Below, piece after piece: positions 8,422-42,202 of a DNA stretch of 64,000 nucleotides. Origin of the DNA: Heptranchias perlo (lineage: Eukaryota); contig NC_090325.1 of NCBI RefSeq assembly GCF_035084215.1, positions 112,778,001-112,842,000 on the forward strand. The letters run 5' to 3'. The translations under genes were made by a program, and so were the position numbers. How positions within the stretch are numbered: the first letter of the stretch is position 1; each line of letters opens with the position of its first letter. Under the pieces are notes generated by a model, which saw only the letters and a list, made by a program, of their open reading frames with translations, was not told the origin of the DNA and made no database searches.

Positions 8422-8462
8422 ATTCACAAGCTTTCGGAGGCTTCCTCCTTCCTCAGGTGAAT
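8422..8462 (-). ncRNA. Minimal type I hammerhead ribozyme motif (minus-strand copy)
   Basis: Exact reverse complement of 8510-8550. Confidence 0.72.
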
Positions 8463-8509
8463 GTTGTGGAAATGAAATGCGAAGGATTCGAGGATTTCAT
8501 TTCCACAAC

Positions 8510-8550
8510 ATTCACCTGAGGAAGGAGGAAGCCTCCGAAAGCTTGTGAAT
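8510..8550 (+). ncRNA. Minimal type I hammerhead ribozyme motif
   Basis: attcac-CTGAGGA-a-ggagg-aag-cctcc-GAAA-gc-TT-gtgaat: 6-bp helix I, CUGANGA box, 5-bp helix II, GAAA box, palindromic AAGCTT helix III. Confidence 0.75.
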
Positions 8551-9559
8551 TTCAAATAACTTTGTATTCTATGCCAAGGATTCTTATTTTTATCATCTAA
8601 TTTGCTTGTGCTGCCTCCTTTTAATGATTTATGCATTCCAAAATGTATCTCATCACATTTTCTGCGTTGAAATGCATCTGCCAGCTTTCTCCTATCCTAC
8701 TACCCTATCCATGTCCCCTTGCCATACCTCTGTCCAATTTGGTGTGATCAGAACATTTCAATATTGTTCCCTCAAATGTTAAGTCCAGATGACCTTGTGG
8801 AACAACACTCACCACATCTTTCCAGTCCAAGAAACTTACTTGTAGCTCCACTCTTTGCTTTCTATCCTCCAGTCATTTGTCTATCTATGTGGTCACATTC
8901 CTCTTAATTATGTGTACCATTATCTTTGCCATACGTTTCTTATGTGGCACCTTATCAAATGCTTTTTGAAAATCCATGTATCGCATCCACTGCATTTTCT
9001 TTATCTATTCCCTTTTTTTTCTAAGCTTGGTCAAACACAAACTGCCTTTTAGAAACCTCTCTTTGAACAATAACTTACACTCACTGGTCTACACATGTTT
9101 CTAATAATTCTACTGTCCCATATCCACTTCCTCTGTGAGGCAAAGTACTTATTTAGTATCACTGCAGTTCCCTCACTCTCCACTACAAGCTTGCATCTTC
9201 CTCTCTCAGCAACCCTACCGTTACCTTTACTGTTCCCTTATTGTGATGTGTCAATAGAAAGTCTTTTTATGGGCTGAATTTTCTTGCATACACCTTCCTA
9301 GCCTTTCTAATCTCCAATTTTCTAGATTTTTTATATTCTTTAAGTTAGTCCCAGCCTTCCATCCATTTCTTTTTGCCTCCCTTGGAATATTCTTGATTTT
9401 TACCCTTTCCATCTCTTGTTTAAGTATTTCCCGTTGCTGATCTAGTTCTTTTCTCCAGTTATTCCTTCCACTTAATTAAGGCAAAGGCTCTTTTTATCTT
9501 GCTTTAATCTGTTTTTTCCAGTTAGGTACTCTTGTCCTTGAATGTTCTTTTTCCTTCTC

Positions 9560-12500
9560 TTTTTTTTTTATTCGTTCATGGGATGTGGGCGTCACTGGCA
9601 AGGCCAGCATTTATTGCCCATCCCTAATTGCCCTTGAGAAGATGGTGGTGAGCCGCCTTCTTGAACCGCTGCAGTCCGTGTGGTGAAGGTTCTCCCACAG
9701 TGCTGTTAGGAAGGGAGTTCCAGGATTTTGACCCAGCGACGATGAAGGAACGGCGATATATTTCCAAGTCTGGATGGTGTATGACTTGGAGGGGAACGTG
9801 CAGGTGATGTCGTTCCCATGTGCCTGCTGCCCTTCTTCTAGGTGGTAGAGGTCATGGGTTTGGGAGGTGCTGTCGAAGTATCCTTGGTGAGATGCTGCAG
9901 TGCATCGTTTGGATGGTACATACTGCAGCCACAGTGCGCCGGTGGTGAAGGGAGTGACTGTTTAGGGTGGTGGATGGGGTGCCAATCAAGTGGACTGCTT
10001 TATCCTGGATGGTGTCAAGCTTCTTGAGTGTTGTTGGAGCTGCACTCATCCAAGCAAGTGGAGAGTATTCCATCACACTCCTGACTTGTGCCTTGTAGAT
10101 GGTGGAAAGGCTTTGGGGAGTCAGGAGGTGAGTCACTCACCGCAGAATACCCAGCGCCCGACCTGCTCTTGCAGCCACAGTATTTATGTGGCTGGTCCAG
10201 TTAAGTTTCTGGTCAATGGTGACCCCCAGGATGTTGATGGTGGGAGATTCGGCGATGGTAATGCTGTTGAATGTCATGGGGAGGTGGTTAGACTCTCTCT
10301 TGTTGGAGATGGTCATTGCCTGGCACTTGTCTGGCGCGAATGTTACTTGCCACTTATCAGCCCAAGCATGGATGTTGTCCAGGTCTTGCAGCATGCGGGC
10401 TCGGACTGCTTCATTATCTGAGGGGTTGTGAATGGAACTGAACACTGTGCAATCATCAGCGAGCATCCCCATTTCTGACCTTATGATGGAGGGAAGGTCA
10501 TTGATGAAGCAGCTGAAGATGGTTGGGCCTAGGACACTGCCCTGCGGAACTCCTGCAGCAGTGTCCTGGGGCTGAGATGATTGGCCTCAACAGCCACTAC
10601 CATCTTCCTTTGTGCTAGGTATGACTCCAACCACTGGAGACTTTTCCCCCTGATTCCCATTGACTTCAATTTTACTAGGGCTCCTTGGTGCCACACTCGG
10701 TCAAATGCTGCCTTAATTTCAAGGGCAGTCACTCTCAACTCACTTCTGGAATTCAGCTCTTTTGTCCATATTTGGTCCAAGGCTGTAATGAGGTCTGGGG
10801 CCGAGTGGTCCTGGCAGAACCCAAACTGAGCATCGGTGAGCAGGTTATTGGTGAGTAAGTGCTGCTTGATAGCACTGTCAACGACACCTTCCATCACTTT
10901 GCTGATGATCGAGAGTGGACTGATGGAACGGTAATTGGCCAGATTGGATTTGTCCTGCTTTTTGTGGACAGGACATACCTGGGCAATTTTCCACATTGTT
11001 GGGTAGATGCAAGTGTTGTAGCTGTACTGGAGCAGTTTGGCTAGAGCGCGGCTAATTCTGCTCTAAGTCTTCAGCAGTACAGCTGGGATGTTGTCGGGGC
11101 CCATAGCCGTTGCTGTATTCAGTGCACTCAGACATTTCTTGATATCACGTGGAGTGAATCGAATTGGCTGAAGACTGGCTTCTGTGATGGTGGGGATATC
11201 GGGAGGAGGCCGAAATGGATCATCCACTCGGCACGTCTGGCTGAAGATGATTGCAAACACTTCAGCCATGTCTTTTGCACTCACGTGCTGGACTCCGCCA
11301 TCATTGAGGATGGGGATGTTTACAGAGCCTCCTCCTCCCGTTAGTTGTTTAATTGTCCACCACCACTCACAACTGGATGTGGCAGGACTGCAGAGCTTCG
11401 ATCTGATCCGTTGGTTGTGGAATCGCTTAGCTCTGTCTATAGCATGTTGCTTCCGCTGTTTAGCATGCATGTAGTCCTGAGTTGTAGCTTCACCAGGTTG
11501 GCACCTCATTTTTAGGTACGCCTGGTGCTGCTCCTGGCATGCTCTTCTACACTCCTCATTGAACCAGGGTTGATCCCCTGGCTTGTTGGTAATGGTAGAG
11601 TGAGGAATATGCCGGGCCATGAGGTTACAGATTGTGCTGGAATACAATTCTGCTGCTGCTGATGGCCCACAGCGCCTCATGGATGCCCAGTTTTGAGCTG
11701 CTAGATCTGTTCTCAATTCATCCTATTTAACACGGTGATCGTGCCACACAACACGTTGGATGGTGTCCTCAGTGCGAAGACGGGACTTCATCTCCATGAG
11801 GACTGTGCGGTGGTCACTCCTACCAATACTGTAATGGACAGATGCATCTGTGACTGGTAGATTGGTGAGGACGAGGTCAAGTAGGTTTTTTCCTCGTGTT
11901 GGTTCACTCACCACCTGCCGCAGGCCCAGTCTGGCAGCTATGTCCTTCAGGACTCGGCCAGCTTTGTCAGTAGTGGTACTACCGAGCCACTCTTGGTGAT
12001 GGACATTGAAGTCCCCCACCCAGAGTACATTTTGTGCCCTTGTCACCCTCAGTGCTTCCTCCAAGTGGTGCTCAACATGGAGGAGGACTGATTCATCAGC
12101 TGAGGGAGGGTGGTAGGTGGTAATCAGCAGGAGGTTTCCTTGCCCATGTTTGACCTGATGCTATGAGATTTCATTGGGTCCGGAGTCAATGTTGAGGACT
12201 CCCAGGGCCACTCCATCCTGACTGTATATCACTGTACCACCACCTCTGGTGGGTCTGTCCTGCCGGTGGAACAGGACATACCCAGGGATGGTGATGGAAG
12301 AGTCTGGGACGTTGGCTGAAAGGTATAATTCCGTGAGTATGGCTATGTCAGGCGGTTGCTTGACTAGTCTGTGGGACAGCTCTCCCAATTTTGGCACAAA
12401 TGCCCAGATGTTGGTGAGGAGGACTTGGCAGGGTCGACTGGGCTTGGTTTGCCTTTGTCGTATCCGGTGCCTAGTGGTCCGATGCTGGGTGGTCCGTCCG

Positions 12501-12662
12501 GTTTTATTCTTATTATGACTATTTTTAGTGAGATTTTACAACTGAGTGGCTTGCTAGGCCATTTCAGAGGGTGATTAAGAATCAACCACATGGCTGTGGG
12601 TCTGGAGTCACATAAAGGCGAGACCAGCTAAGGACGGCAGGTTTCCTTCCCTAAAGGACATT
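9560..12662 (-). mobile_element. Near full-length non-LTR retrotransposon, RTE-X-like (clade tentative), APE endonuclease plus RT
   Basis: EN motifs (DIAILTE, WVGDFN, LDLVLTN, SDH) and RT motifs (NYRSISPLS, AAFDRVWH, LADD, YKAQVRSVMEY) across ORFs 9852-12397; A-rich tail at 9560-9569; 5' UTR at about 12500-12662. Confidence 0.88.
9852..12397 (-). pseudogene. Disrupted endonuclease-reverse transcriptase ORF of the RTE-X-like LINE
   Basis: Six collinear ORF pieces (12161-12397, 11723-12064, 11063-11716, 10529-10996, 10137-10472, 9852-10136) separated by stops or frameshifts. Confidence 0.85.
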
Positions 12663-13354
12663 TATTCTTACACTGACCCTAATTATTTTGTGGTCACTGC
12701 TTCCCTAATGTTCTTGTACTTTTAGGTCATCTACTTGCTTTGCATCATTATCCAGACCTAGGCCAAGGACTGCTTCCTTCCTTGTAGGAGGAGCAACATA
12801 TTGACTGAGAAAACAGCCCTGAATGCATTACAAAAAACAAACTCTACTTTCTCACCAAAAACATTCTCCTACTCTATTTATTGGGTAATTCAAATCTTGT
12901 ACAATGATAACTCTATTTTTAATACACACCTCCCTGAGTTGTCAATAAATTCCATCCACATTCAAGCAGGCACACTTTGTGTGAGAGGCAAATGAGGTGG
13001 ATCTGACTGGATTTCTGTCAGATGATGCCTCCTTTTCTTACGTCGGCACGGAGAGGGACGTGAACGCTAGAACTGCCAATCCGTAACTCTCGGAATGTTT
13101 CGGTGTGACAAAAGGAATGATACCCAGCAGAATCTGGTCCTGTTTCAAATTCCACCCCTTCCCTGCACCCCCACCATTGCCTGACTTTTGCTTCAGAAGC
13201 CCTCTCCTGGACCCAGCAATTTTGGGCCCTTTAACTTTAAAAATGTGTCAATCAGTACAATTCAGTGACACCGGCGCATTTAAACACAGTCACCACCACC
13301 AACTCCCGTTCAGGCCAAACTCATGTCCTTACTTTCTCACAGCAAAAAGTAATT

Positions 13355-13541
13355 GGGGTTATTTTGAGTTTGGGTGATAGTGTAAAACGGGTGATGTCGG
13401 ATCAGCTGATCATTGTACACCTCTCCTGGTTTTCATTTCTGTTGCTTTCAATGGTAATAAAAATCGGGACAGATGTATAACGGGCCAGCTGATCTGGTAT
13501 TGCCTGTTTAACACCATCACCCAAAGTCAAAAGTGAGCGCC
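13355..13541. mobile_element. Palindromic MITE with about 54-bp imperfect terminal inverted repeats (TIRs)
   Basis: ggggttattttgagtttgggtgatagtgtaaaacggg...cagctg (13355-13408) mirrors cagctg...cctgtttaacaccatcacccaaagtcaaaa (13486-13541). Confidence 0.7.
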
Positions 13542-13668
13542 TCATTCAGTCAATCTCTTGCAGCTCTTATCTTGTATGAAATGAAACTCCTTTAGATTTG
13601 CCATTCAGTTCAATGCTCATCCTTACTAGTGTAGATTCAACTTTATTATAATGTTTCACAACATTTTA

Positions 13669-14899
13669 GGAGTGATTTTTGTCTCAGATAAAGGGTGGTA
13701 ATGGCCTGCAAATCAAGCAACTGCTAGTCCTGACACTTTCCACTGCTTTTATGCGTGGTCCAATTTTGGAGCGGACCTGAATCCTGGCGGCCTGTGCTTC
13801 TGCCTGAAACAGGTGGGAGCCTCATGAATACATGTAAGTAAGGATCAAGAAATGCTAATTAGATCCCAATGCCATTGCCCGAGGTCACCGCTTGTTTACT
13901 GCCAGTTCCGGCTCCCGCCCACCAACCACAGACAGTACAAGTCGTCAGGCAGTCAGTTGGAACAATACCTAAAGGGATCCTTAGCTGCCCTGAAGTAAAG
14001 CTGTCTAGAGCTTTTAGAAACATTTTTCATACATAGCTTATGGATTTATTCACCTTAAAAGATTTGAAAATGCTCGTCGTTGCATCTGTAGATTCTGAGC
14101 TCTCCAGTGCTCTCCTGGCTGACCTCCCCTCTTCTACCCTCCATAAACTTAAACTCATCCAAACCTCTGCTGCCTATATCCTAACTTGCACTAAGTCCCA
14201 TTCACCCATCACCCCTGTGCTCCCTGACCTCCATGGGCTCCCGGTCCAGCAACATCTCAATTTTAAAATTCTCATTCTCATGTTAAAAACCCTCCATGGC
14301 CTCACTCCTCCTTCTCTCTGTAACCTTCTGCAGCCCTACAACCCCCTGAGAACTCAGTGTTCCTGCAAATCTGGCCTTTTGTGCATCCCCCACTTCCTTC
14401 ACCCCAGCATTGGCGGCCGTGCCTTCAGCTGCCTAGGCCCTAACCTCTGGAAATCCATCCCTAAATGTCTCCGCCTCTCCACCTCTTACTCCTCCTTTAA
14501 GACGCTCCTTAAAACCTACCCCTTTGACCAAGCTTTTGGTCACCTGATATAATATCTCCTTCTTTGGTACGGTGTCAATATTTGTCTGATTACACTTCTG
14601 TGAAGCGCCTTGGGACGTTTTACTACGTTAAAGGCGCTCTATAAATGCAAGTTGTTGAACTCATGTTGCCTGCTGTGTTGTCACACAAAAATGCCTCTGC
14701 ACTTTAAGTGGCTGCTGCCATCCCTTAAGTTACGGCCGCACTGTCTGATTTCCCACTTCCAAATTGGTGAGCCGCTGAAGGTGCGCATTTTGTGCTGGCA
14801 GCTCATTGACCGCATGTTAACGAACCCCCCGCCATCTCCTTCAGGTTGCTCCACCCATTCACCACCTGCCAGCACTGCTCATGTGTGAAAATCACCCCC
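13669..14899. mobile_element. Non-autonomous Harbinger-type element interrupted by an L2 fragment
   Basis: Termini ggagtgattttt (13669) and aaaatcaccccc (14888-14899) are inverted matches; GC-rich interior. Confidence 0.5.
14076..14657 (+). mobile_element. L2 LINE 3' fragment
   Basis: ORF 14040..14552 contains KLKLIQTSAAYILT..SHSPITPVLPDLHGLPV..GGRAFS..LW..SFKTLLKTYPF, typical of L2 ORF2 C-terminus; L2 tail follows. Confidence 0.85.
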
Positions 14900-16509: not shown

Positions 16510-16784
16510 TTGCCTAATTTCGACAGTGAGGAGCCGATATTTGTTCGCTGCCACCCGCACAATTGTAGCAGCAGCTCGTTGGTCTGCAAAAATCGCGTTG
16601 GGGTCCCCAATTTAAATATTTTAATAAGTCTGCCGCCTGTTTCAGTCGGGACTGCTGGCTGCCCATTTTAAGGCCCGCTCGAAAATTGAGTCGTGGGGTC
16701 AGTGGGCTTTTTAAAATTTTGATTTGCCTACCACCCCATTTTCCAGCATAAACGGGGTGGGTGGCATGTACGAAAATTGGCCCC
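16510..16784. mobile_element. MITE remnant with a Harbinger-like terminus
   Basis: CpG-containing block ending aaaattggcccc, similar to other element ends in the window. Confidence 0.4.
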
Positions 16785-16789
16785 ATAGT

Positions 16790-17035
16790 GTTAGTAGGCT
16801 ATTCCACAGTGGAGGGCAGCACAATCAAGTACAGTCTTGTTCTCAGCCAAAGTCCAAACAGCATATTTTCCAGCAGGGGCCACTAGTTATCAATCAGTGG
16901 GAAGCCCTGGCTGAATTTTTCTCTTTACTTGCCCACAGGTACTGAGATTAGCAATCTCATTGCAGCAGGGATGGGACCAGGGTCTTTCATGCAATGTATT
17001 ACTATTACACCATATTAACCCGCTCAGCCTTTAGC
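16790..17035 (-). mobile_element. Decayed SINE-like interspersed repeat
   Basis: ttttccagcaggggccactag...ccctggctgaatttttc resembles, from memory, a common chondrichthyan tRNA-SINE; a weaker relative may lie at about 37340-37560. Confidence 0.3.
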
Positions 17036-17124
17036 GGAGAGTGTGAAAAAGCTCTCGCTGAAAGTTGAGTAAATGTAAGGAATCTTACAAAACCAGGTTA
17101 TAGTCCAATAGTTTTATTTGAAAA

Positions 17125-17161
17125 TCACAAGCTTTCGGAGGCTTTCTCCTTCGTCAGGTGA
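17125..17161 (-). ncRNA. Minimal hammerhead ribozyme motif (minus-strand copy, CUGACGA core)
   Basis: Reverse complement reads tcac-CTGACGA-a-ggag-aaagc-ctcc-GAAA-gc-TT-gtga. Confidence 0.68.
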
Positions 17162-17321
17162 GTGTGGGATTCCATGGAAGGTACCGCATATATAGTCAGA
17201 GAACAATGCCTGGTGATTACAGATAACAGTGTCACGCTACACGTAACCCCACCAGCGAAAAAAGAGTTCTCTGTTTTTAATGCAACTGGTCATTCTCTCT
17301 CTTTCTCTTCCTTTCGGATGT

Positions 17322-17359
<38 letters not shown>

Positions 17360-17521
17360 TTGGGTTCTGACCGTTTGTATATTCAGTAGTCCTGTATGTA
17401 ATGTCTCTCTGTCTGAACACTCCTTTGATTGCCTTGATAACGGGCAGTTGGAAAGATTATCTGTAATCACCAGGCATTGTTCTCTGACTATATATGCGGT
17501 ACCTTCCATGGAATCCCACAC

Positions 17522-17558
17522 TCACCTGATGAAGGAGAAAGCCTCCGAAAGCTTGTGA
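17522..17558 (+). ncRNA. Minimal hammerhead ribozyme motif (CUGAUGA core)
   Basis: tcac-CTGATGA-a-ggag-aaagc-ctcc-GAAA-gc-TT-gtga. Confidence 0.7.
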
Positions 17559-18230
17559 TTTCAAATAAAACTGTCGGACTATAACCTGGTGTTGTAAGAT
17601 TCCTTACATTTGTCCACCCCAGTCCATCACCGGCATCTCCACATCATGAAAGTTGAGTAACCATCTATTGAAGGATACTGTCACATTTTTTCAGAATCAA
17701 TAGATTAGTGGATACAAAATTGGACCTACATATCAGACTAATTTTCCCCTTTTGGGTGCTGAGTGTTGAGGAATTGCTTCTTAAGAGACAATCAAGCATC
17801 TGTTTGTTACCAACATTTGAAAGAATGTTTAAAGGATTTTTCTCACATATTCTTTGATAATAAAATGTACACCATCTGCTCCCTCCAGTGGATTGTGCTC
17901 TTATTTGTATATTTCTTGTGTGCATATGTGCTCATTAAAATGAGGGATTATAGTCCTGAGGAGTTTAGCATTTGTGCAATGGGAATGCTACTTACACTGA
18001 TAGTATGGCTCAAACAGCCAATTTGAGGAACACATTCTTATTATTATGCCACAATGCTTGTGGATATTAGTAAACAAGATGCACCGCTGTGGAATTTAAT
18101 CTCTGTCAAGAAAATATACACATTTGTAAAAGTAGATGGTGTTTGCAGTAGAATAATTGGTGACCTGCAAGTTTTGGATTATTTCAAACTATTTTTAGAA
18201 TTACATTTCAACTGATACAACTGATATTTT

Positions 18231-19944
18231 ATAGAATCATAGCAGTTTACAACATGGAAACAGGCCCTTCGGCCCAACATGTCCATGTTGCCCAGTTTAT
18301 ACCACTAAGCTAGTCCCAATTGCCTGCACTTGGCCCATATCCCTCTATACCCATCTTACCCATGTAACTGTCCAAATGCTTTTTAAAAGACAAAATTGTA
18401 CCCGCCTCTACTACTGCCTCTGGCAGCTCGTTCCAGACACTCACCACCATTTGAGTGAAAAAATTGCCCCTCTGGACCCTTTTGTATCTCTCCCCTCTCA
18501 TCTTAAATCTATGCCCCCTCATTATAGACTCCCCTACCTTTGGGAAAAGATTTTGACTATCTACCTTATCTATGCCCCTCATTATTTTATAGACTTCTAT
18601 AAGATCACCCCTGAACCTCCTACTCTCCAGGGAAAAAAGTCTCAGTCTATCCAACCTCTCCCTATAAGTCAAACCATCAAGTCCCGGTAGCATCCTTGTA
18701 AATCTTTTCTGCACTCTTTCTAGTTTAATAATATCCTTTCTATAATAGGGTGACCAGAACTGTACACAGTATTCCAAGTGTGGCCTCACTAATGTCTTTT
18801 ACAACTTCAACAAGACATCCCAACTCCTGTATTCAATGTTCTGACCAATGAAACCAAGCATGCCGAATGCCTTCTTCACCACCCTATCCACCTGTGACTC
18901 CACTTTCAAGGAGCTATGAACCTGTACTCCCAGATCTCTTTGTTCTATAACTCTCCCCAATGCCCTACCATTAACGGAGTAGGTCCTGGTCCGATTCGAT
19001 CTACCAAAATGCATCACCTCACATTTATCTAAATTAAACTCCATCTGCCATTCATCGGCCCACTGGCCCAATTTATCAAGATCCCGTTGCAATCCTAGAT
19101 AACCTTCTTCACTGTCCACAATGCCACCAATCTTGGTGTCATCTGCAAACTTACTAACCATGCCTCCTAAATTCTCATCCAAATCATTAATATAAATAAC
19201 AAACAACAGCGGACCCAGCACCGATCCCTGAGGCACACCGCTGGTCACAGGCCTCCAGTTTGAAAAACAACCCTCTACAACCACCCTCTGTCTTCTGTCG
19301 TCAATCCAATTTTGTATCCAATTGGCTACCTCACCTTGGATCCCGTGAGATTTAACCTTATGTAACAACCTACCATGTGGTACCTTGTCAAAGGCTTTGC
19401 TGAAGTCCATGTAGACCACGTCTACTGCACAGCCCTCATCTATCTTCTTGGTTACCCCTTCAAAAAACTCAATCAAATTCGTGAGACATGATTTTCCTCT
19501 CACAAAACCATGCTGACTGTTCCTAATCAGTCCCTGCCTCTCCAAATGCCTGTAGATCCTGTCTCTCAGAGTACCCTCTAACAACTTACCCACTACAGAT
19601 GTCAGGCTCACCGGTCTGTAGTTCCTAGGCTTTTCCCTGCCGCCCTTCTTAAACAAAGGCACAACATTTGCTACCCTCCAATCTTCAGGCACCTCACCTG
19701 TAGCTGTCGATGATTCAAATATCTCTGCTAGGGGACCCGCAATTTCCTCCCTAACCTCCCATAACGTCCTGGGATACATTTCATCAGGTCCCGGAGATTT
19801 ATCTACCTTGATGCACGTTAAGACTTCCAGCACCTCCCTCTCTAAAATGTACACTCCTCAAGACATCACTATTTATTTCCCCAAGTTCCCTAACATCCAT
19901 GCCTTTCTCAACCGTAAATACCGATGTGAAATATTCATTTAGGA
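18231..19944 (-). mobile_element. Young 5'-truncated CR1 LINE
   Basis: RT motifs [38 protein letters not shown]; 3' end atagaatcatag. Confidence 0.92.
18310..19854 (-). pseudogene. CR1 reverse transcriptase ORF2 fragment broken by one in-frame stop
   Basis: ORFs 18799..19854 (351 aa) and 18310..18789 (159 aa) share a frame, separated by TAA where [12 protein letters not shown] is expected. Confidence 0.88.
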
Positions 19945-22499: not shown

Positions 22500-22800
22500 T
22501 ACCTTTGTGTGGTCCATCTCTTCCCTCTTTTTCTGGCTTTCTCTCTCTCTCCATCTTTGGTAATGAGCTTTCCAGAGATTTTTAATACAAGCTCAGACTC
22601 CCACAACTACTTGGATTGTGTTTCTTCGCTCCCCACTTCCAGTCAATACTTCATCCCTTTCTCTAGTTTTCTCCTTCTCTGTCATATTTGCTCTAATAAA
22701 TCTACTTTCCACACCAGAGTTCCTAAAGGTCTTTCTTTTTCCTCATTTGAGTCATCCCTCAGCAATTGTTGACAAGCCCTTTGATTGAATCCACCACATT
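22500..22800 (+). pseudogene. Decayed Penelope-like RT C-terminal fragment
   Basis: ORF 22509..22772 DSHNYLDCVSSLPTSSQYFIPFSSFLLLCHICSNKSTFHTR resembles the PLE motif TDSHxYLxYxSxHP..SIPFSQFLRLRRICS. Confidence 0.65.
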
Positions 22801-27298: not shown

Positions 27299-30200
27299 GG
27301 GTTTGTATGAAAACAATGCCCCTTTTAAAGGGAATGATTTAATTTTCATATAACTTGCAATGTTGATGCATAAGTACGTTGAAGCAAATGCTTAGAAAAG
27401 GCCAAATGTATTTAACGCCAAACAAATTATTTCATGACTCATACTGTCTTTTATGATACAAAATCCTGACTGGAGTGAACATTAGAATTATGATCAGCAA
27501 ATATTTACCCCTGGAGGCTTACAAACAATTCAGTGGTTATGTTATTAGATAATAGCTGTGAGCCAGCCTGTACATCTTATATAACATACCTCACAGAACT
27601 GGAATTCCTCGTGAGTGACATTGCTCTTTCAGTGTATTCCTTGTGCCTGGCTATTGCCCCCTGTGGTTTGAGTGTGTATCATCTTGCTTAATGGCCTCAG
27701 GAGAAAGGGGCGAACTGAATGTTATTTGTATGAGAGTTCATTGGTTTGATTTGTTCTGATCTCTCCTGTTTATGTAACCTCATATATCAGATGCCATGTC
27801 TCTTGCCAATACAATGAATGGACCAACAGTTGTATGACCTAATTATACTTAATTTTTTTAGATTGGCACAATAATAAAAACAATCCACTGGCAAGGTTCA
27901 GAAGCAGCTCGTAAAATCTAAAACATACTTTCTTATCGATTGCAATCAGAAAGTCTTCTGAGAGCTCTGTGATGCCAAGACGATATATATTTCTTCTAGT
28001 TTAAAAACAATAGGCTGAACGCACTTCTTACAAGGATTAAAAGGGAGTTAAAGCTGCAAATTGCCGATTTTGCAGCAAGTTTGTGAAAACAATGGAACTT
28101 GCAGTGGACAGTTGATTTTAGTAGTTTAATGCAGAGCTTATTTAATGTATAAGGGAGATTAAATAACTCATGAATCACAAAGTCATGTGCATATTCTGTC
28201 GGTTTCTCCTCACATGAGGCTTAAATAATGCATTGAACAAGTAAATAACAAAAATTCTGTTTACAATGCAATTTAGATTATAAACCATTTTAAAAGGTTT
28301 AGGCATTTAATTTTATTCAGTTTAAAGGGACCTACCGCAAGTATGAAGGGTATTCCCACAGACTGATTGCACTTCACGTTTTGTGTTGGTGCAAAGCAGT
28401 TTTGACCACACATTGATGCAAATCCCATAGTCTGACTCACGGTGAAGTTGGCCAGATTGAATTGTGACAAGTGGTGTGAGATCACCTGAAGAGGAGCAAA
28501 AAGTGAACATAAAATTACAAATGCTGGAAATTTGAAATAAAAATAGTAAGTACATAGCATGTTCATCATCATCCGAAAAGTGAGGTTCATTCACATCTTG
28601 GGGGTAGGGCCTTGAATTTCAGGGCCAGAGATTTTTTTGATAGGCAGATAGTGTTGAAACAGCTATTTTTACTAGGATTTATCTTAAAGAATAAGGTTCT
28701 TTCAAATAGCTGTCTGTAAATTATAGCATCAGCTTTTAAAACATTTTTATGAGTAAAGCAATAATGAGCATGCATTGGGGTAAGTGTCCATTTGTACATA
28801 TGCATGTGCCTTTGTGTATCATATGAATGTGTACATTTGTATCAGATGAGTATGTGTATTGTCTTGCGAAAGTAGGTTGAGCTAAAGTAAAGACCATTAC
28901 TTAAGATTGAGAGAACTCTACCATATCTTACCCTTCAGTAATGTTTTCTATAAAGAAGAGAGATGCAACCAATTTAAATTCACAGCAAGGACTACATGTA
29001 AGGAGTAATTTTACGAATTTGTGCTCCTGGTGGGGAGCTTCGCCTACTGGGGTTGCACATAGGAAATTTGGACATTTGCTGCATGCAGGTTTCTAACCAA
29101 AATGGTTGAAATGTCATGTACATTGCCTGCCTAGAGTTCCAATGTGTGTGCCCGGTGGATGATGTGTCCAGCCAGGAGTGTGAAGTCAGGAAAAGAAAAG
29201 AAAAATAACCAGCTCTTCATTCCGGTACTGGGAAGAGAGTTCAGTTGTACTCAATGTCATAGAAACTGCAGTGAGATTTTTCATTACAAAAATAGAATAT
29301 AACTATAGTCAGCTTTGCCTTAGTCTTGTATTTAAAATTGTATTGCTTGCTTCATTTTACTTGTTTGGCAAACAAGCTTCAGGGAGTGCAGTAAATGTTT
29401 ATTAGAGTACTTCTATACCTCAGTAATTATGCCTCTACAATGCTAATTGAAAAATGTCATCACAAATTGATGTTTGCATAGCAATTATTACCCCTACTTC
29501 TCTGCAATTGCTTTATGAAGGGTTTAAAAACATTTTCTAAGTGTAAGCAATCAACAACTATTGTGATGGACTTTGTAAGCACCAGATAAAAGGAGCCTGG
29601 TTATTCCTGGCACCCTGCTTTCCCAGCGTAAGTCAGCAACTGGAACAGATGTCTTATGTTTCTCTCTCTCTCTCTCTCTCTTTCTGCAAAGCCTTCTGGG
29701 TTTTGGCTTATGCACGCAACTTCCCCCTCCTCTTCTCCAGGATTGTGAGGAGCCACAACTCCACCTCCCCACAGCCCTGTCCCTCAGGATCATTATACTA
29801 TCAATGATTATCAAATAAGAGTAGCAACAGGTGATCTGTTCAGACAGGTTTTTGACTCCTTTACAAAAATTAACTCAACTCACTGTTATAGAATTCTTGT
29901 GGCAATTAAATTGTTACTATGGTAATTGCATAGCTACGGCTTGATACATTTGATATGGAATAGGTAGATTAGCAGTTTCTACTGCATGATAAACGATTAT
30001 GGTAGAGGGATTAAATATTTAGGGTTGTGTTTGTATGGGCAAGTAAGCCGAAGTGTAGATTTCATATAGGAAGGTTTCCTCTGTGTGCTATTTGCAACAA
30101 AATCATAAATCTGTTTAAAAAGAGATTTATTTAACAAAATCTGAAACCCATTCCTCCAACATCTGTGTTCCCATTTAAGTTTTCTTTTTTCAAAACCATA

Positions 30201-32502: not shown

Positions 32503-33664
32503 TTGCTTCCAGACTTGGGAGGCCTGCTAGGGCTTCCTCTGGGAATTGAACATGACTGGGAGAACGAAGAGAGGCCACACGGAGCGGGACAAGCTGTGAG
32601 AAGAGGGAGGAGGAGCAGGAGCAGGAGCAGGAGCAGGGCACTCAGCAGGAGGTCATATCCGCAAATAGTCTTCAGGGACCAATTCTCTTACCTCAACTTC
32701 AGCGAGGACCAGTGCATCAGACGGGTGCAGTTCACTAAAGAGGTCATGACTGAAATTTGTCAACTGCTGCAGGCACAACTGCAGTCTCAGAGCAGGGCAA
32801 GGACAGCATTGCCTGTGGCTGTCAAGGTGACCGTGGCTCTTAATTTTTATGGCTCTGGCTCCTTTCAGGCTGTTGCTGGAGATAAGCAACATCTCGCAGT
32901 TTGCAGTGCACTGCTGTATAAGGGAGGTCACAGAGGCTCTGTACGCACTCCGAAACAGATTCATCTCATTCCCTCTTGCCAGAAACAAGCAGGAGGAGTG
33001 AGCACAAGGGTTTGCTCGCATTGCAGGCTTCCCCATAGTGCAGGGTGCCATTGACTACACGCATATTGCCATGCGTGTTCCACATTTGAACTCGGCCATA
33101 TTCATGAACAGAAAGGGATTCCGCTCCCTCAATGTGCAGCTGGTGTGCGACCACACACAGCACATCATGCAGGTCAATGCCCACTATCCTGGCAGCAGTC
33201 ATGATTCCTTCATCCTGCGGCATTCTAACATGCCACTTATACTTCAACCACACATCAAGTCAAAGGCTGACTACTGAGTGACAAGGGTTATCCCCTCATG
33301 ACATGGCTCATGACCCCAGTCCAGAACGCACGTACATGTGTACAGCAGGCCTACAATGAGAGCCATGCTGCCACACAGAACATCACGGAGCACACCATAG
33401 GTGTCCTCAAGCAACGCTTCCGCTGCCTGGACCACTCTGGAGGAGCCTTGCAGTGCACAGCTGAGCAGGTATGAAGATTTGTCGCACAACCTGGCCATAA
33501 TGAGGGAATGGCCCTTGCCACTACCTATCAGGCGAGAACCTGAGCTAGAGACAGAGGAAGAGGCGGAGGAGGAAGTGGAGAAAGAGGCAGGGAGGCTACA
33601 AGGTAGACAGGCCCTGTCTGCCAGGGCTCTGCATGATCAGATTATTAATGAACGATATCAGTAA
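32503..33664 (+). pseudogene. HARBI1-like DDE transposase (DDE_Tnp_4 type), frameshifted
   Basis: QGAIDYTHI, NRKGFRSLNVQLVCD, YPGSSHDSFIL, DKGYPL (gacaagggttatcccctc), LKQRFRCLD; acidic C-terminus. Confidence 0.9.
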
Positions 33665-33860
33665 CCTCTTCAACACCTCCCCATTCACCAACAGTCCCAC
33701 ACTCCTTACCTTTCCTCACTCACATGACATCAAATCATCCTGCTTATGATTACATGTTGCTTCCTCCCTCAGCTCACCGCAGAAATAAAAACCACCACCA
33801 AATGCAAATTCAAATCCACATTTATAAATTAACACATGAAATTACGCAAACAAAATGAGA

Positions 33861-35666
33861 CTATTCACCCTTGTCAATTGCCTTAATGCCTGTCGTTCGT
33901 GTGCCTTTACCTTTTCTAGTGCTCCTACGAGGTGCATCCCCAGTGGTTGGAGCACGGGTGGTGAAAGGCTGCTGACTTTCAATGGAGGAGATTGCAGATG
34001 GCCTTAGAGGATGACCTCGAGCAGCTCTGGGCCAAGAGGGCCCGGCTTCAGACTGCACCATCTCGGCCTGGGCTGCAGCAGTCCGGGCTGGCCGGCTGAT
34101 AGGCAACAGCAAGGGCACTGGCGGAATGTCAGGAGTGGGAGCAGGAATGCTGTCAACCTGAGAGAGGACAGCAGGTTCGTCTTCCATCGCGTCACTGCCA
34201 CTCTCCCGGGATGGTGCCTCAGCAATCCTGGTGATCTGTTGGAGAACAGATTACAATGTAGCAGTCAGACCTTGGACGGCAGATGTTTGTGCTGCAATGG
34301 AAGGTGTGACATCGGTCATCAGACGCTGCCTCGTGGTGGGTTCCACAGGTGTGCTGATGGAGGTGACCATCTCTCCCATGTGGGAAAGGATGGGCTCCAA
34401 GCTCTGCGCAAAATTCTGTGCCAAGTTGGAGCTGGACTCCTCCATGCCCCTTGACATTGTGCGCAGGCATTTGGTGGTGTACGACCATCAGCCTTCTGCT
34501 GTAGCCTGGCCCATCGAAATCATCATCTGACCCCCTCGGCAGCAGAACTAGTGTGTGACTTCACCCTCCAGCGTGCTGGCACCTGCGGTATCCTTTTCCC
34601 CCCGCCCGCCTCCTGCGTATTTGTGCCCAGTATCTCACCACGTGCAGATCCCTCCTCTATGCTAGCCTCTAAACTACGCGCAGTGTCAGTATCTGAGCTG
34701 GTGGCTGCGAGTGTATTTACGAGGCAGTGGAGGAAGTAGCGGACGAGAGTGACGGTGTGTCTTCATCATCACTGACGTCTTCCTCTGCCTTCTCTGACTG
34801 GGCAGGTTCCAGTTCTTGGGTATCTGAAATGACAAAGGGATACAGGTTGAGTTGTGGTGAGGGGAGAAGTGAAAGTAAGACGTGCGTGCTCACACCACCT
34901 GCAGCACTTGAGTCAGAAAAGATTGTGGGATGAGGGAGAAGTGGGAAGCGAGCAGAGACCCCCATAATCGATGCCGCCAGTGGCCACGGCCTCACGGATG
35001 TCCCTCATTGGGAGTTAGGAGATGTCGGCATGTCCTCCTCCAGTTCTTTCTTGCTGCTTACTGTTATGCGCTCCTTCTCCTGCAAGAAAGCAGGAAGTGA
35101 GTCAGTGAGAATCCTGCAAGATGTTTGGGTGATGTGGCTGACATGGTTGAATAGCTGCCTGTGTATATGTCCTGTGAGTTGTGGGTGTGCAGCTTGCAAC
35201 TGTGGTAATGTGTGAGGTTGAGATGAAGTATCTGATTTGAAGAGTTGAGTACTGATTGAAAGAGTTTGTTGGTATGTGGGTGATGGGGGGTGTAGTGCAT
35301 TGAGCAGTGGACGAGGCTCGTGGTGCATTTAATAGGAGATGTCACTTGACAGTTGAACTCACTTACCCTGATGACTCGTGTCAAATCATTGAAGTTCCTA
35401 CTGCACTACATCCATGTTCTTGGTGCTAAGCTTCTGGCATTGAATTCGTCCCCTACTTCCTGCCACTGCCTTGTGAGCATATGTCTGGAGGGCCTGCTGT
35501 ACCCCTGCGTACACAGGATGCCCCTCCTTCTGTCCACCTCTTCCACCAAGGCCTCTAGTACATCATCAGAGAACCTTGTTGTCGCTCTCTCGCAGCCGCA
35601 GCCATTCTTCAATTTATTGCAGCACAGATTCACTTCACAATTGACTTCCACCACTTCATGCACCAA
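33861..35666 (-). pseudogene. Harbinger Myb/SANT-like DNA-binding protein gene, multi-exon, decayed
   Basis: RFSDDVLEALVEEVDRRRGIL..WQEVGDEFNA..RTW; donor GTAAGT at 35366; acceptor ttgcag ending at 35080; later exons acidic or Pro/Ser-rich. Confidence 0.8.
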
Positions 35667-38394
35667 TAGTGCACCTCCCCTTTAAGAGGTGCAGGCTGCC
35701 TTTAAGTAGTGATAGCCACTCACGATATCGGGGCCCCCTGCTAATGTGTGCAGCCAATCAACAGTGCAGCTAGCACTGGCTGCACGCAGCAATCATGTAG
35801 ATCATCAGGCAGCACGAATGTTACAGGGGTTATCTAATATAACACCCGCCCCCCCCCCCCCCCCCCCATTTCTTGAAAGCACATGGCTGATACTGTGTTG
35901 TATATTTCAGCAGGTGAAACATCGATAGACAATATCAGGCAAGATTTTGCTGGGACCAGCACCACCAGCAGGACTGTGCGTGCCGTCAGCAAATCGCACA
36001 TGCACTGCCCACGATTTGCTGGCAACCTGCCCACTGCATCTGAGGCCCTGCCGATGGCCCGGGGTATCAGAACATTTTATCCGGCATCTCATAGGAATGA
36101 ATTTGACAAGTTTCAATATTGCAAACCAGGTCAAACCATAAAACCTAATGAAGTTTAGAGCACTAACAGAACTACTGTCATTTTTTTTTGGACTGCATTA
36201 ATGACGTGCTTTGTGTACATCATGAGACAAGCAAACATTTGAATAAAACTTTGTAAGGGAGAGTGTTTGAAAAATTTAATGCAGTTTTTCATATGTGAGC
36301 CAGTGTTTCAGCTGCTGAAATATACATTGCAGTGTGCAGCATTTGGGCAACTGTTGAAAGGAAAACTTATGTGTAATGTCATTATCTGAGTGGTTAATTT
36401 AGCAGATGCGTTAGGTTGCCAATGGAACAACTTAGTATGTCTACTGGTAAAGGATTACACAGGATTATATCACTGGAATGACTAGTGAAAATCATTTAAG
36501 ACCAATAAGAGTAGACAACAAAAGAAGGAGACTGACAGTAAGTTGCCATTTTATAGTAGGTAATCTAACACTAATCTATCCACGTTACATCAGAACCTGT
36601 TCAGTGAAGTCAATCCCATCTCTATATTCGTACTGTCCTTGCAGTAGCTAAAGCTGATTTATGTTTTATGTTATCAATCTGGTCCTTCTGGCAGCGTGAA
36701 GCAATAAAAGTAAATTATTTGCTAGCTTGAACTAGCTTGTGGGATCAATTTGGAAAAATGCACTGTCCATTAAAGCAGTGAAGCACATATAATTGTACCT
36801 TATTAGGTTGAACCGAAGATCCCTTGGTCTGAGTCCAGTACATGCAGCAACTGAGTACAATACATCAATCTGATTGAGCCTACAACTTGCCTCAGGGAAC
36901 GCATAGCTGACTTATATATTCATATAATGGAGAATTAGCACAATATGATATATGTATATATTTGGCAGGCAAAACATGGGTTGGTAACAGGGAAGGGAAC
37001 AGAAATGTAATTAATGATATTCTTGGCACAAGTGATGGAGGATGCTGTGACTGAAATGGTTGTTTATCATGTGAAACCAAATGTCATTGTTTTTTTTTTA
37101 GCACAAGTAACTAACCATCCATTCTATTGATGGGCGTTTCATCTTGCCTTGTCCCCATTTTGTTGACTGGGGTCATTAGTCCAGATAGACCAAAATAGAA
37201 GATCTACTATCCCTCTCTGACTGTTTATCAATTATATCTTTTCATGTTATAAATTATTTATATATATTCTCTAGCCCACTAAGAGTGCTGTTATTATGAA
37301 TGGTTTATATCATAAGCACGGATTGCACCTTGGAGCGCCACTGCATTGCATCCAACCGCTCCCCCCCCCACCTCAGCTGAGTTGCTGATCTCAGTCATGC
37401 TGCTACAGTGAGGCACAAGCAGGGGCCAGGGGCCTTCATGCAGAGGGAATTGAAAATGAGATGAGGGATCGTCACAGGACCAATGCAATGTGCCTTATGA
37501 CAGACAACAAAGAGTGGGATTAGCAGTCATCAAATAGCAGGCTAGCCTCTCAGACAAAGGACGCACAGAGCTGGGAAGGAGCAGCAAGGTAAGGTAGAAA
37601 AAGGTGTGGGACCTCATAGGGCAGCAACATATCTGAAAATAAACATTTTATATCATGGACCAATATTCTTTTTTATTTTTGCATTTGTGTGCTTTCTGAT
37701 GTGGCCTGTGCCAGATTTTGCAACTTCTTCCTTTTTCTTTTTCTTCTTTTTTGTTAGTTTGCTACAGTTGTTAAATAGTGGCAAGCTGTTAATGAGTAAT
37801 TGTTGTTTCTTAATTTGTCCCATTATCACCCTTCTTGCCTTGCACCATCATCCCTTTTGTCATTTGGGACCGATTTTCAGATAGCTGAGCGGGTGCGTTG
37901 GGGGTGGGAGGGCTCCTAAAATGGCGGAATCCTGGAGCGGGTTCGGAGCCCGCCTCCAACCTGCTGACTTCTCCAGTGAAGCGTTCAGGTGCGCGCGCAG
38001 CTCCCGAATGCGGGACTCCCACCGGCAATTAAAGCCGGCAGGATGATCATTTACATAGTAGGTTGATAGTTGAGGTACTTGAGAGACCTCATTAAGTGGA
38101 GATTTTGGCAGGGGTGCAATTTTGAAGGATCCTCAGCGTGTTTCCCGTGCTGGGGGAAACACTCCCTGTTGGAGCAGACGTGTTTCAGCCAGCAGCCAGT
38201 GGGAGATACAAAGGATTATTTGACAGTTGGGGAGAAAACCTCATTTATTCCAGCAGGGCACTCTGTCACTTCAGACAGAGTTTTGGCTGCACCACTTTAG
38301 TCTTTCCACTCAAAATTCTTAATTTATATCCAAAACTCTGCTGTGCAAACACATTTACCTACTTTGCGGACCCCCTCAAACTCACACAGTCAGG

Positions 38395-39600
38395 ATGGGG
38401 GGCACCATGGCTCATTCATCACTGCATCCGAGGACGAGCAACATCACCAGCCTCGCCAGGCACGCCGTCCACCACCGCCACGTGGAGCTCCACAACACAG
38501 TGCAGCGCCACAGGCACCTGCACAACGGCACGGAGGGAAACAAGAGAGAGAGCGGCGTCACAGGAGGCACTACCCTCGCAACAGGGTCGACAGACCGAGG
38601 CTCAGCTTCCTGGACCTCTCTAAGGAGCAGTGCATATGGAGGCTCAGAGTCAGTCGTCAGGTAGTCGCAGACATCTGCAGCTTCCTTCATGCCAAGCTGC
38701 TCCCGGCTGGGCCGAGCAGCATCTCCTTGCCTGTGGCTATCAAAGTCACCACTGCCCTCAACTTCTTCACCTCCGGATCATTCCAGGATGCCACAGGAAC
38801 ATCGCCGGGGTCTGTCAGTCGTCTGCACACAAGTGCATAAGGTAGGCCACCGACGGCTTGTTCTGCAGGGCCTCGCACTACGTCAACTTCCCCATAGACG
38901 ACCTCAGCCAGACGGTGAGGGCAGTGGGATTCCACGCTGTGGCTGGCTACCCACGGGTGCAGGGTGTAATCGGTTGCACCCATATAGCAATACGAGCACC
39001 TCCACATGAGCCGGGACTGTTCATCAACAGGAAGGGCTATCACTCCATCAACACTCAGCTCATCTGTGACCACCGCAAGAGATTCCTTCACGTGTGCGCC
39101 AGATACCCTGGCAGCTGCCATGATTCCTTCATCCTCTGGGAATCCAACATCCCGTCCCTCTTCCACACACTGGAACACCCACAAGGGCTGGCTTCTCGGG
39201 GACAAGGGGTACCCCCTGCACGCGTGGCTCATGACACCTCTGAGGAACCCCACCACCGAACAACAGCCTTGATATAATGACAGCCACATCGCCACAAGGT
39301 CTACAATTGAGCTATAGGGCTGCTCAAGATGCGCTTCAGGTGCCTTGATTGTTCTGGGGGAGCGCTTCAATATGCACCAGACAGAATGGAACGCATAATA
39401 GTCGTGTGTTGTGCCCTGCACAACACGGCACAACAAAGAGGGGTGCTGCTGGAGGAGGCCCCATCCACTTCTGCCACCCACATTGAGGAGGAGGATGATG
39501 AGGACGAGGCAGAGGAAGAGGAGCAACCATGAGCAGAACAGCGGCTCACCTGGCTGCTCGTGACGCCAGGGAGTCACTGATATGTAAACGGTTCTCCTAA
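38395..39600 (+). pseudogene. HARBI1-like DDE transposase, frameshifted
   Basis: [66 protein letters not shown] spread over several frames. Confidence 0.92.
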
Positions 39601-39920
39601 CATAAGACAGTGTGAAGAGTCCAATCCTCACCATCTGGACAGAGCAGTGGCCACACCAGCCCCCCAACTCCCCCAGCCCCTGCACAAAACAGTCCTGCAA
39701 CTACACATCCACCCACTGTAGAGTGACCCAATGAATGGCATCAAGTGTGGGCGTTCATGGTGAACCTCATGAAAGGGACTTATTACACAAGCCAGTCAGG
39801 AATGGCCAAGAGGTGGCAGTAGTGGTGACAATAATAATATTTAATGTGCCATTAACAAAAATCAAATATAAATTAAAAACATGACAAACCATCAAACATC
39901 CTTGTACATCCCCTTTGTGC

Positions 39921-41766
39921 TTACAAAACCTTTGCCTTATGCTTCCGACTACTTCTACGTGGTGCATCCCCTGTGGCTGCAGCAGAGGTAGTGGCAGGTT
40001 GCTCTTGTTCATGCCCTGACCGATTAGATGCTTTGGGCCGACGCCCTCTGGGTTTGGGTGCCCATGAGGGCCCCTCCAAAGACTGCTCCACTGCACCTGT
40101 GCAGGGGCAGACTCGGCCACCTGGAGAGGAGGCAGCATTGCGGGTACTGGTTGAGAGGGGGGCAACCGGTGAGACATCGGGGCGCTTTGAGTGGCATCCC
40201 CACTTCCATGTACCCTTTCGCCATCTTCCCTCCCCTGTGCCAGGCCCACATCACTCCTTCCACCCTGCTGGACAACAGTTTGGAGGACATGTGTGAAGCC
40301 TTGAAAGGCCAGTGCCAGAGTATCTGCCTGCCTGTTTAAGGCGGCAGAATGTTGTTCACCCTGAGTCCGAAGGGCTGTTGTCAGGGCTTCAATGGACTCA
40401 TTAGTGAGCTGTGGCTTGAAGCTCGATGGAGGCTAGCCTTCCCTCCATCGCAGACATTCCCGCACTTACCCGCGACACTATCTCAGAGATGCCCTCACGT
40501 CCTTGTGACAGTATTCCACTCATGCAGGAGTTGGACTCCTCCATCCTCTGCGCGATTGTGGAGAGTGCGCGTGGCACCTGTTCCAGCACCTCGCAAATGT
40601 GTTGCTGCCCCTCGATCATTCTCCTTTTCATGGATGACCCCCAGGGTTCAGCATCTGTGTCCAGCTGAGCAGAGCCTGGAGAAGAGTGCTCCCACCGACG
40701 CGGACTCTCTGCAGCTGCTCCTGCCACCAGTGTCTGCTTGTGCTCACATGTGTGGTGACTCATCATGTGCGACCCCAACTAACTGAGGACGGGGACCCAC
40801 CGAGGTGTGTGTATCTGTGCTGGTGGATGACTCGCTCAGGTGTGACGGTGCCCCCTCAGAGGCCGGCAGGTCCTCTAAGGAATCGCCCTCCACCGTCACA
40901 GCGGTCGCTGAAGACCCTTTAAGAGAACAGAAGGCAATATTAAGCATGATGACAGATGTTGAGGTGCTGAAGATGGCAAGGCATGTTAACGTCAATTGAT
41001 TTTATGTGTGCTGAAAGTTAAAGTTCTATTACCAGCCATTTGTTGGGTGGCAGTCTCGGTGTCCCCGACGGACAGCCACTCGAGGGTGTGGCTCAGTTCA
41101 AGAGCCTCCTGCTCAGCATCTGTGAGGACGACCTGATGTTGCAGCCCCCCTCCGGTCTTTGCCCGCTCCCATGCATTCTGGGCTCTCTTCTCCTATAAGG
41201 AGAGAAAGTAGAGAGGCGTGAGTGAGGGATGGTGATGTGGCCAACCGCTCAATGCATTGGTTTGGGTGAGGCTGACCGTGAAAGAGGTGCATCAGAGGGT
41301 GAGTATGAGACAGACCCATGACATTGTATGAGGATTGGGTTGAGTGGTAGTGGTGGGATGAGTACTGGGAAGGTGAGGAAGTGCAGGTAAGTTGAGGATG
41401 AGCTTTGAGTGGGTGTGAGGAGTGATGTGATAGAGTGGTGTTGGCAGTGCAGAATGAGTTGGGGGGGGGGTGGGGGCGGTGATGTGGAAGACGGAGTGTA
41501 GGAGAATGAGTAAGTGTACTCACTTAGGATGACCTAGTTAGGTAATTGAAGCGCTTCCTGCACTGGATCCAGGTGCGGGACATGATGTTGCTGCTGCTGC
41601 TGACCTCCTCTGCCACCTCGAGCCAGGCCTTCTTGTTGGCAGAGGCAGGCCACGTCCTCCCATCCGCCGGGTAGAAGACATCCCTCCTCCTCCTCACCCC
41701 ATCCAGTAGGACCTGGAGTGCAGCATCAGTAAATCTGGGAGCAGCCTTTCCCCTTGGTTGCTCCAT
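39921..41766 (-). pseudogene. Harbinger Myb/SANT-like protein gene, multi-exon
   Basis: Exon 1 MEQPRGKAAPRFTDAALQVLLDGV..AWLEVAEEV..RTWIQCRKRFNYLT with a stop at its last codon; donor GTGAGT at 41523; exon 2 from 41192 reads EKRAQNAWERAKTGGG. Confidence 0.85.
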
Positions 41767-42165
41767 TCTATAATTTTGTTTTTTTGCTCTAGGAGCAGCA
41801 TTGGAGGACTGCCCCTTTAAATAGGGCTGCTACAGCTGACAGCCTGTGATGCGGGTGCGCAGTCCGCTCGCTGCGCAGGTTGACGACGGGAATCCAGGAA
41901 TCCACGTTAAGTGGTTTTAATTTACCCGCGATCACTTGAGGAACAGACAGATTTTACTGGGCGGGTTACCCACGTGCCCAATCGCCCGCCCCCCCCCCCC
42001 CCCCCCCCGCTGCCAACCCGCCTCCCTGGTAATATCGGGGCCTTAATCTCTCTTGCCCTCTACCCTATCACAGACCTTCCCTTTTGTTCTTACCTCCCCT
42101 CTCCCTTCCCCCCACTTTCTCTGGCTCTGTACTTGCTTAAAAACTTTAACTCTTTAACATCTTCC

Positions 42166-42202
42166 AGTTCTGACGAAAGGTCTTCGACCTGAAACGTTAA
42201 CT
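42166..42202 (+). ncRNA. Minimal hammerhead ribozyme motif of a different PLE family
   Basis: agtt-CTGACGA-a-aggtc-ttc-gacct-GAAA-cg-TT-aact: helix I, 5-bp helix II, palindromic AACGTT helix III. Confidence 0.78.

Follow-up and report, generated by a model that had tools for sequence, protein, structure and literature searches.

The window studied here, a 64,000-nucleotide (nt) stretch of the genome of the cartilaginous fish Heptranchias perlo (assembly GCF_035084215.1, contig NC_090325.1, positions 112,778,001 to 112,842,000 of the forward strand), holds five minimal hammerhead ribozyme motifs. We consider it highly probable that these are stubs of two families of Penelope-like elements (PLEs), here called A (four motifs) and B (the motif at 42166), that the stubs were copied from mostly uncut RNA, and that the ribozyme is under selection in the master elements. 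The motif class is already known, as the minimal hammerheads of PLEs (Cervera and De la Pena 2014), and what this work adds is confined to the host group, the scale and a quantified state of the template. The five motifs are thus ordinary as a kind, and their value lies in their bearing on the function of PLE hammerheads, which Craig et al. 2021 (PMC8557442) called unclear.

A descriptor search of both strands of the window gave exactly five matches, reproducing the positions, the helix I and helix II pairings and the U at position 17 (U17) that an initial annotation of this DNA had assigned to all five motifs; Markov shuffles of the window (n = 100) gave 0.04 matches on average and one at most. 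The CUGANGA and GAAA boxes, with U16.1 and H17, are present in all five, as is an extra nucleotide, in each case A, between A9 and 10.1, which also occurs in 74 of 75 family A copies. The 10.1–11.1 closing pair, usually G–C in this class (strongly conserved if not universal), is G–C in the four family A motifs and A–U in the family B motif. The self-complementary hexamer that the annotation took for helix III had to be shortened. The true helix III is the 4-mer A15.1-N-N-U16.1 (AGCU or ACGU), itself palindromic; by standard hammerhead numbering the hexamer also takes in A14 and U17, two bases left unpaired when the ribozyme is in its active form. An Rfam scan of the window returned no hammerhead family at E<=5; over the fold-back at 8430-8541 it returned only microRNA-hairpin matches, below threshold, and these are the fold-back itself.

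The motifs are not five independent ribozymes. They sit in three insertions (E1, E2 and E3; Table 1), each truncated and flanked by a target-site duplication (TSD) of 12-13 bp, and four of them are the arms of two head-to-head inverted insertions. In E1, the minus-strand arm reaches the element end at the start codon of the open reading frame (ORF), and the plus-strand arm is an inverted, shorter copy. The inverted repeat (72 nt, 97%; arms 8407-8478/8494-8565) carries one hammerhead per arm, and neither arm reaches the TATA box. The inverted repeat of E2 measures 114 nt (96%), with the motifs at 17125 and 17522 in opposite arms; a constant 5' terminus for family A at 17230, considered at one point, proved to be an artefact of the query used. 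The two pieces of E3, 37803-37865 and 42043-42266, are contiguous in the family B copy L263.

The assignment to minimal type I hammerheads of PLE pseudo-long terminal repeats (pLTRs) is borne out by ORFs with reverse transcriptase (RT) and GIY-YIG domains upstream in related copies, while the three Penelope-like lineages first proposed reduce to two families. E1 and E2 represent subfamilies of a single family A because the ORF found in E1-type copies is the same one, at 86-94% amino-acid identity: with a C-terminal query taken from a 17522-type copy, long copies of the 8510 type matched at about 90-94%, and with an N-terminal query at 86%. The ORF of family B, found in E3-type copies, is a distant PLE ORF, about 28% identical to that of family A.

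5' ends of the copies and the state of the template RNA

The family A hammerhead occupies the stretch from about 120 to 92 nt before the ORF start, 3' of a TATA-like box. From 44,247 exact matches to the terminal 27 nt of the element, the first 100 were taken and their 5' ends mapped against long natural copies, with removal of three segmental duplicates (L202, L204, L205) and, for the 5'-end counts, of L139, an end mis-called through subfamily divergence. In 39 of the resulting 96 copies the 5' end falls within -143..-119, a 25-nt stretch that takes in C3 and the bases immediately before it; in 20,000 uniform simulations the best 25-nt window held at most 26 of 65 ends, against the 39 observed. 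A further 31 of the 96 end beyond -200, and none ends at the scissile bond (-93..-91). Most long copies have a TATA-like box at -157..-168, and the 5' ends track its position (rho 0.41, p 0.01, n=40, mode TATA+29), with an assignment of references that is partly circular. Family B behaves alike, with 8 of 19 5' ends within 30 nt upstream of C3. Since copies begin a short way upstream of the ribozyme and hardly ever at the position of the cut, the template RNA, judged from copy ends, was likely mostly uncut.

The 5' ends also bear on a rival explanation, in which the ribozyme, by cutting, defines the 5' end of the RNA used for transposition, as the HDV-like ribozymes of R2 elements do. Across the genome the cut site is traversed by 47,322 arms; 64 begin precisely at the scissile bond, compared with 28 at -2 and 45 at +2, and it is this count that speaks for cleavage. 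However, the 64 correspond to about 0.4% of arms, near the background of the sample (each junction count captures about 0.3 of the true junctions, and chance matches were corrected for). Several of 30 such cases inspected are internal deletions or A/T-rich filler junctions, and none of the 19 ORF-junction copies analysed (of 30 junction loci) starts at the cut site. We hold the explanation to be most unlikely, and for family A it is already largely refuted.

Of 97 sampled copies, 7 extend into the ORF, and the 44,247 exact element ends compare with 398 exact end-to-ORF junctions, a count that covers two start variants with a third outside the search. An inverted arm is adjacent in 51 of the 97 copies, and 44 of these 51 arms end at -42..-28.

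These observations can be accommodated by a mechanism in which transcription would start about 30 nt 3' of the TATA box, near -135, so that the ribozyme would be the first structure of the mRNA. The element protein would nick AT-rich DNA, and reverse transcription would begin at the start codon or about 36 nt before it. Priming at the copy of these sites near the RNA 5' end may then yield cDNAs of about 120-140 nt that run off the RNA start. Often, one cDNA from each target strand would be joined head to head (twin priming), producing the fold-backs, and the outcome would be tens of thousands of hammerhead-only stubs and fold-backs. In the masters, the ribozyme may act as a slow, dimer- or protein-dependent cutter, removing the cap and the short leader of the element's own RNA in tandem transcripts; cutting would be a processing or off-switch step, not needed for insertion. 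We put forward only tentatively, and with some doubt, a more specific version: that about 100,000 intact hammerheads stem from one PLE family copying the first ~130 nt of its own mRNA, that the stubs are a fossil record of the RNA as it was inserted, >99% of it uncut, and that the ribozyme is a cap-proximal off-switch that withdraws RNA from transposition and is damped by U17, which makes helix III a 6-bp palindrome with A14 and the scissile base locked inside.

The short fold-backs might instead be a self-propagating non-autonomous element, retrozyme-like or resembling a short interspersed element, rather than one-off by-products. Such an element would account for the high copy number, retrozymes have been proposed to derive from PLE pLTRs, and the Penelope element of D. 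virilis has an internal promoter. However, junctions, arm lengths and fillers vary from copy to copy, the short copies lack the TATA box and they do not form tandem arrays, and we regard this possibility as quite improbable.

In more than 40,000 young copies, the genome keeps a record of the point at which the template RNA began; this record favours an uncut template, speaks against a ribozyme that generates the 5' end as in R2, and agrees with one in vitro study. In that work, Frangieh et al. 2024 (PMC11167929) identified unprocessed RNA as the main substrate of the Anolis Poseidon element. Poseidon resembles the present families in its two internal RT start sites that define the tail, its AT-rich targets and its uncut RNA substrate. 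It differs in that its hammerhead overlaps the start codon and RT begins 111-118 nt into the ORF, whereas here the hammerhead lies wholly in the 5' untranslated region and copies end at the start codon.

Probable selection on the fold and the dispersed pool

Conservation of the ribozyme was assessed in 75 of 127 family A copies, selected with a 3' or junction pattern that does not overlap the ribozyme; the other copies were incomplete or exceeded the four mismatches that the filter allowed. At the 11 core positions no variant is seen three or more times, and N7 is variable (G 46, C 29). Recurrent stem changes mostly preserve pairing: pair 10.5-11.5 is G-C in 37, A-U in 17, G-U in 11, A-C in 8 and G-G in 2 copies, and pair 2.3-1.3 is C-G in 45, U-G in 24, U-A in 4 and A-G in 2. 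In a set of 16 distinct haplotypes, hand-picked (15 of family A, 1 of family B), 97.7% of cells pair and two-sided change occurs at 9 of 11 pairs. This was reached in 0/500 shuffles, a count that is not a probability since the sequences are related, and slid controls were 31-52% paired. Thus, the covarying stems described in the initial annotation are real among subfamilies, while the five window copies themselves mostly show the contrast between families A and B. Its proposed test, conservation and covariation beyond the flanks, gave a positive result across families and a suggestive one within family A. These patterns suggest that the ribozyme fold has been kept by selection in the master elements.

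The very large genome-wide pool anticipated in that annotation was found: 33,550 exact pattern matches for family A and 2,268 for family B (reversed controls, 0 matches for both), and about 1.3e5 by extrapolation. A generic ACGU pattern gave 9,516 matches genome-wide compared with 473 for its control. The extrapolation rests on unselected DNA, in which 54 tiles of 10 kb (540 kb) contain 21 intact motifs, against 0-1 in each of 20 shuffled sets; the resulting density of 39 per Mb has a Poisson range of 0.8-1.9e5 genome-wide, wider with clustering. The window's own density would extrapolate to ~2.5e5. All 21 unselected motifs are of family A with AGCU and U17. Head-to-head pairs hold 10 of them and 11 have no partner inside their own 10-kb tile; among the first 100 family A pattern matches, 24 head-to-head pairs within 2.2 kb were counted by eye. 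The palindrome-specific choice of partners that had been envisaged would sort little in this genome, AGCU being common to every unselected motif.

Nor is U17 the oddity it was taken to be. By our own count it occurs in 24 of 56 published PLE minimal hammerheads, with a consensus of H, and it obeys the NUH rule. Cleavage is slower with U17 than with C17. The literature searched on cleavage yielded no measured rate for GCU-U or CGU-U triplets, with GUC stated to be best.

The size and uniformity of this pool are what would favour a third rival, according to which dispersed copies in host RNAs dimerise in trans via the shared palindrome and cut host pre-mRNA; the motifs without a head-to-head partner and the conformity of U17 to the NUH rule also suit it. 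Our folding predictions argue otherwise. In ViennaRNA, a dimer with the 4-bp helix III brings no gain over two monomers (-22.9 vs 2 x -11.9 kcal/mol for E1), and the program favours instead a 6-bp helix III in which A14 and U17 are tied up (-25.5), 2.4-2.6 kcal/mol below the 4-bp form. For mixed AGCU/ACGU pairs no duplex is predicted. For read-through RNA, folding predicts that the four fold-back motifs, and so 4/5 of the window motifs, pair fully with their antisense arm and are masked (helix I probability <1e-40 with 450-nt flanks); about half of family A insertions have such an arm. Helix I of E3 is predicted to be weak (0.01-0.08). No host exon was located in the window among the ORFs examined, those of at least 120 aa. 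Published minimal hammerheads are inactive as monomers and weakly active as dimers (PMC4209133), and in published work the ribozyme is active only with the element's protein (PMC11167929). We therefore consider cutting of host pre-mRNA by dispersed copies to be unlikely indeed. The motifs in the three window insertions are likely inert passengers.

Several points weigh against the reading of stubs copied from uncut RNA, selected in the masters and inert in the window. The 100-copy sample comes entirely from the first 7 Mb of one contig (C1). Cut-site ends are commoner than ends at -2 (p 1e-4), if not clearly commoner than those at +2 (p 0.16), and a small cleaved fraction of the template is possible. 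The pile-up of 5' ends could be a stop of the reverse transcriptase at an upstream hairpin. The internal promoter of D. virilis Penelope is TATA-less. The only RNA data are four sets of assembled contigs from one sample of uncertain type; they cover the repeat and are uninformative on start, strand and cleavage. With regard to selection, most two-sided changes in the haplotype test stem from the single family B row, and the family A core is not significantly more conserved than its downstream flank (0/11 vs 11/57 columns, Fisher p 0.19). As for masking, E2 keeps a TATA box on both arms, and a transcript begun within the insertion would not include the antisense arm, leaving the ribozyme able to fold; with 150-nt flanks, the minus arm of E2 has a predicted helix I probability of about 0.8.

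Parent families and comparison with known elements

Copies of the E2 end are ~98% identical across the 3.25-Gb genome, and longer family A copies (L004, L007, L012) carry the RT/GIY-YIG ORF upstream. In all four loci fetched for tandem structure (L258-L261, contig C1, 3.12-6.10 Mb), a 902-aa RT + GIY-YIG ORF is uninterrupted, and the same-sense hammerheads that flank it are 3,069-3,086 bp apart, in tandem or partial-tandem units. Such near-identical open ORFs in tandem are a sign of very recent family A activity, and the intact tandem units are a ready substrate for tests. The family A ORF matches RVT_1 above cut-off and has a DKG motif; the Pfam GIY-YIG model gave no match, and GIY-YIG with CCHH-type residues was read by eye. 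The linker between RT and endonuclease (EN) has C-x4-C-x2-C in both families; the ORF start of family B was not found in six extended loci. From the DKG motif, the cysteine linker and the CCHH-type residues, which Craig et al. give for PLEs of the Neptune/Nematis type, both families would be of that type. Hallmarks of EN-containing (EN+) PLEs were also found, namely partial tandems, an inverted 5' copy, a 30-40 bp tail and TSDs.

The likeness to published EN+ elements of this type (PMC8557442) extends to the single ORF with RT and C-terminal GIY-YIG, the DKG motif, a CX2-5CxxC linker, the partial tandems, the 5'-truncated inverted copy and the tail. The window insertions differ in having clear 12-13-mer TSDs in A/T-rich DNA, with no microsatellite targeting seen at any of the three. 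An inverted copy, a tail, a TSD and a pLTR TATA box have all been described in other PLEs.

The motifs share with the minimal hammerheads of metazoan PLE pLTRs (PMC4209133) the CUGANGA core, the extra nucleotide after A9, the short helix I and the palindromic 15.2/16.2, as well as an arrangement that is mostly solo or in opposite-strand pairs 100-700 bp apart, with rare tandem pairs at a spacing of ~3 kb. For helix III/N17, the GC-U-U seen here recurs in the Chrysemys entry. On the other hand, no cartilaginous fish is among the 56 listed, and the A10.1-U11.1 pair of family B departs from the usual G-C. The at least 35,800 exact matches here, and the ~1.3e5 estimated, compare with roughly 9,000 in Xenopus and 4,000 in coelacanth, counts made with different descriptors. 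A literature search on hammerheads, Penelope-like elements and shark found one review only, and the supplements of the retrozyme preprint cited next may list chondrichthyan families.

Non-LTR (long terminal repeat) retrozymes (Li et al. 2026, bioRxiv 10.64898/2026.07.22.740005) likewise have type I hammerheads and a proposed PLE origin, with one chondrichthyan included. Those are non-coding tandem repeats with a ribozyme in each unit, whereas the window copies are dispersed, TSD-flanked single or head-to-head stubs, and we rejected retrozyme membership for them.

Separately, we came across a third PLE family, C, in a head-to-tail array of at least eight hammerhead-bearing units near the start of contig C1 (917000-1027000; L095-L102, L184-L187). 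The units are 98.6-99.5% identical over 3 kb, and each is about 8.8 kb long with two open, overlapping ORFs: ORF1 (L184 7138-9399, minus strand; 754 aa between stops) has a weak GDSL-lipase match (E 0.011), and ORF2 (L184 4937-7168, minus strand; 744 aa) matches RVT_1 and GIY-YIG above cut-off. They include or are separated by about 70-110 CCCTAA repeats, one truncated unit being directly joined to such a tract, and their hammerhead has C17. Family C appears to be an intact two-ORF EN+ PLE associated with telomeric repeats in a vertebrate genome, a type with no direct match in the literature searched.

Further features of the window

Table 1. Positions of the hammerhead motifs, the three PLE insertions and their target-site duplications in the window
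Feature	Positions	Strand	Remarks
Left TSD of E1, 13 bp	8324-8336		Same 13-mer at 8324 and 8561
E1 fold-back, PLE family A, subfamily A1	8337-8560	-	93% match to natural full-length unit
Minimal hammerhead	8422-8462	-	Helix I 6 bp, helix II 5 bp, helix III AGCU, U17 at 8428
Minimal hammerhead	8510-8550	+	Identical to 8422-8462 motif; U17 at 8544
Right TSD of E1	8561-8573		
Left TSD of E2, 13 bp	17060-17072		Same 13-mer at 17060 and 17648
E2 inverted arm	17073-17229	-	Stops ~38 nt short of direct arm (PLE 'tail' offset); contains TATA-like box
Minimal hammerhead	17125-17161	-	Helix I 4 bp, helix II 4 bp, AGCU, U17 at 17129
E2 direct arm, family A, subfamily A2	17230-17647	+	Last ORF codons and complete pLTR; ends at ORF start codon
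TATA-like box, putative promoter	17489-17494	+	37 nt upstream of hammerhead C3
Minimal hammerhead	17522-17558	+	AGCU, U17 at 17554; ~92 nt upstream of ORF start
Right TSD of E2	17648-17660		
Left TSD of E3, 12 bp	37789-37800		Same 12-mer at 37789 and 42268
E3 5' piece, PLE family B pLTR	37803-37865	+	90% match to family B copy L263
PIF/Harbinger-like DNA transposon, later, splitting E3	37866-42042		Short terminal inverted repeats
E3 3' piece, family B, without optional tail	42043-42266	+	93% match to L263
Minimal hammerhead, family B	42166-42202	+	Helix I 4 bp, helix II 5 bp, ACGU, U17 at 42198
Right TSD of E3	42268-42279		

Besides these insertions, 23 nt at 3845-3867 match the extreme terminus of family A and have an apparent 11-12 bp duplication around them, which would make them an ultra-short PLE insertion. 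Short or diverged family B matches without an intact hammerhead lie at 22583-22745 and 28521-28549.

Acceptor-like tracts lie downstream of 17554 and 42198. In the family B motif, a branch-point-like TTAAC comes immediately after the cut site and leads into a pyrimidine tract and CAG (42195-42224), an order that resembles a splice acceptor. D. virilis Penelope is known to have an intron that overlaps its ribozyme (PMC4209133). For an intron beside the ribozyme at the E2 locus, no GT..AG joint was present among the joints shown by the contigs aligned to 17000-17720.

The ~4.2-kb Harbinger-like transposon inside E3 contains a DDE_Tnp_4 match (38846-39277, E 1e-12), and related copies or pieces of it lie near 32800-34000 and 56000-57600. 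RVT_1 matches on the minus strand at 10529-11062, 18799-19857 and 51679-52428 mark fragments of retrotransposons other than PLEs, which gave no tblastn match to the PLE ORF. A G-rich minisatellite with a unit of 63-64 nt occupies 62300-63700.

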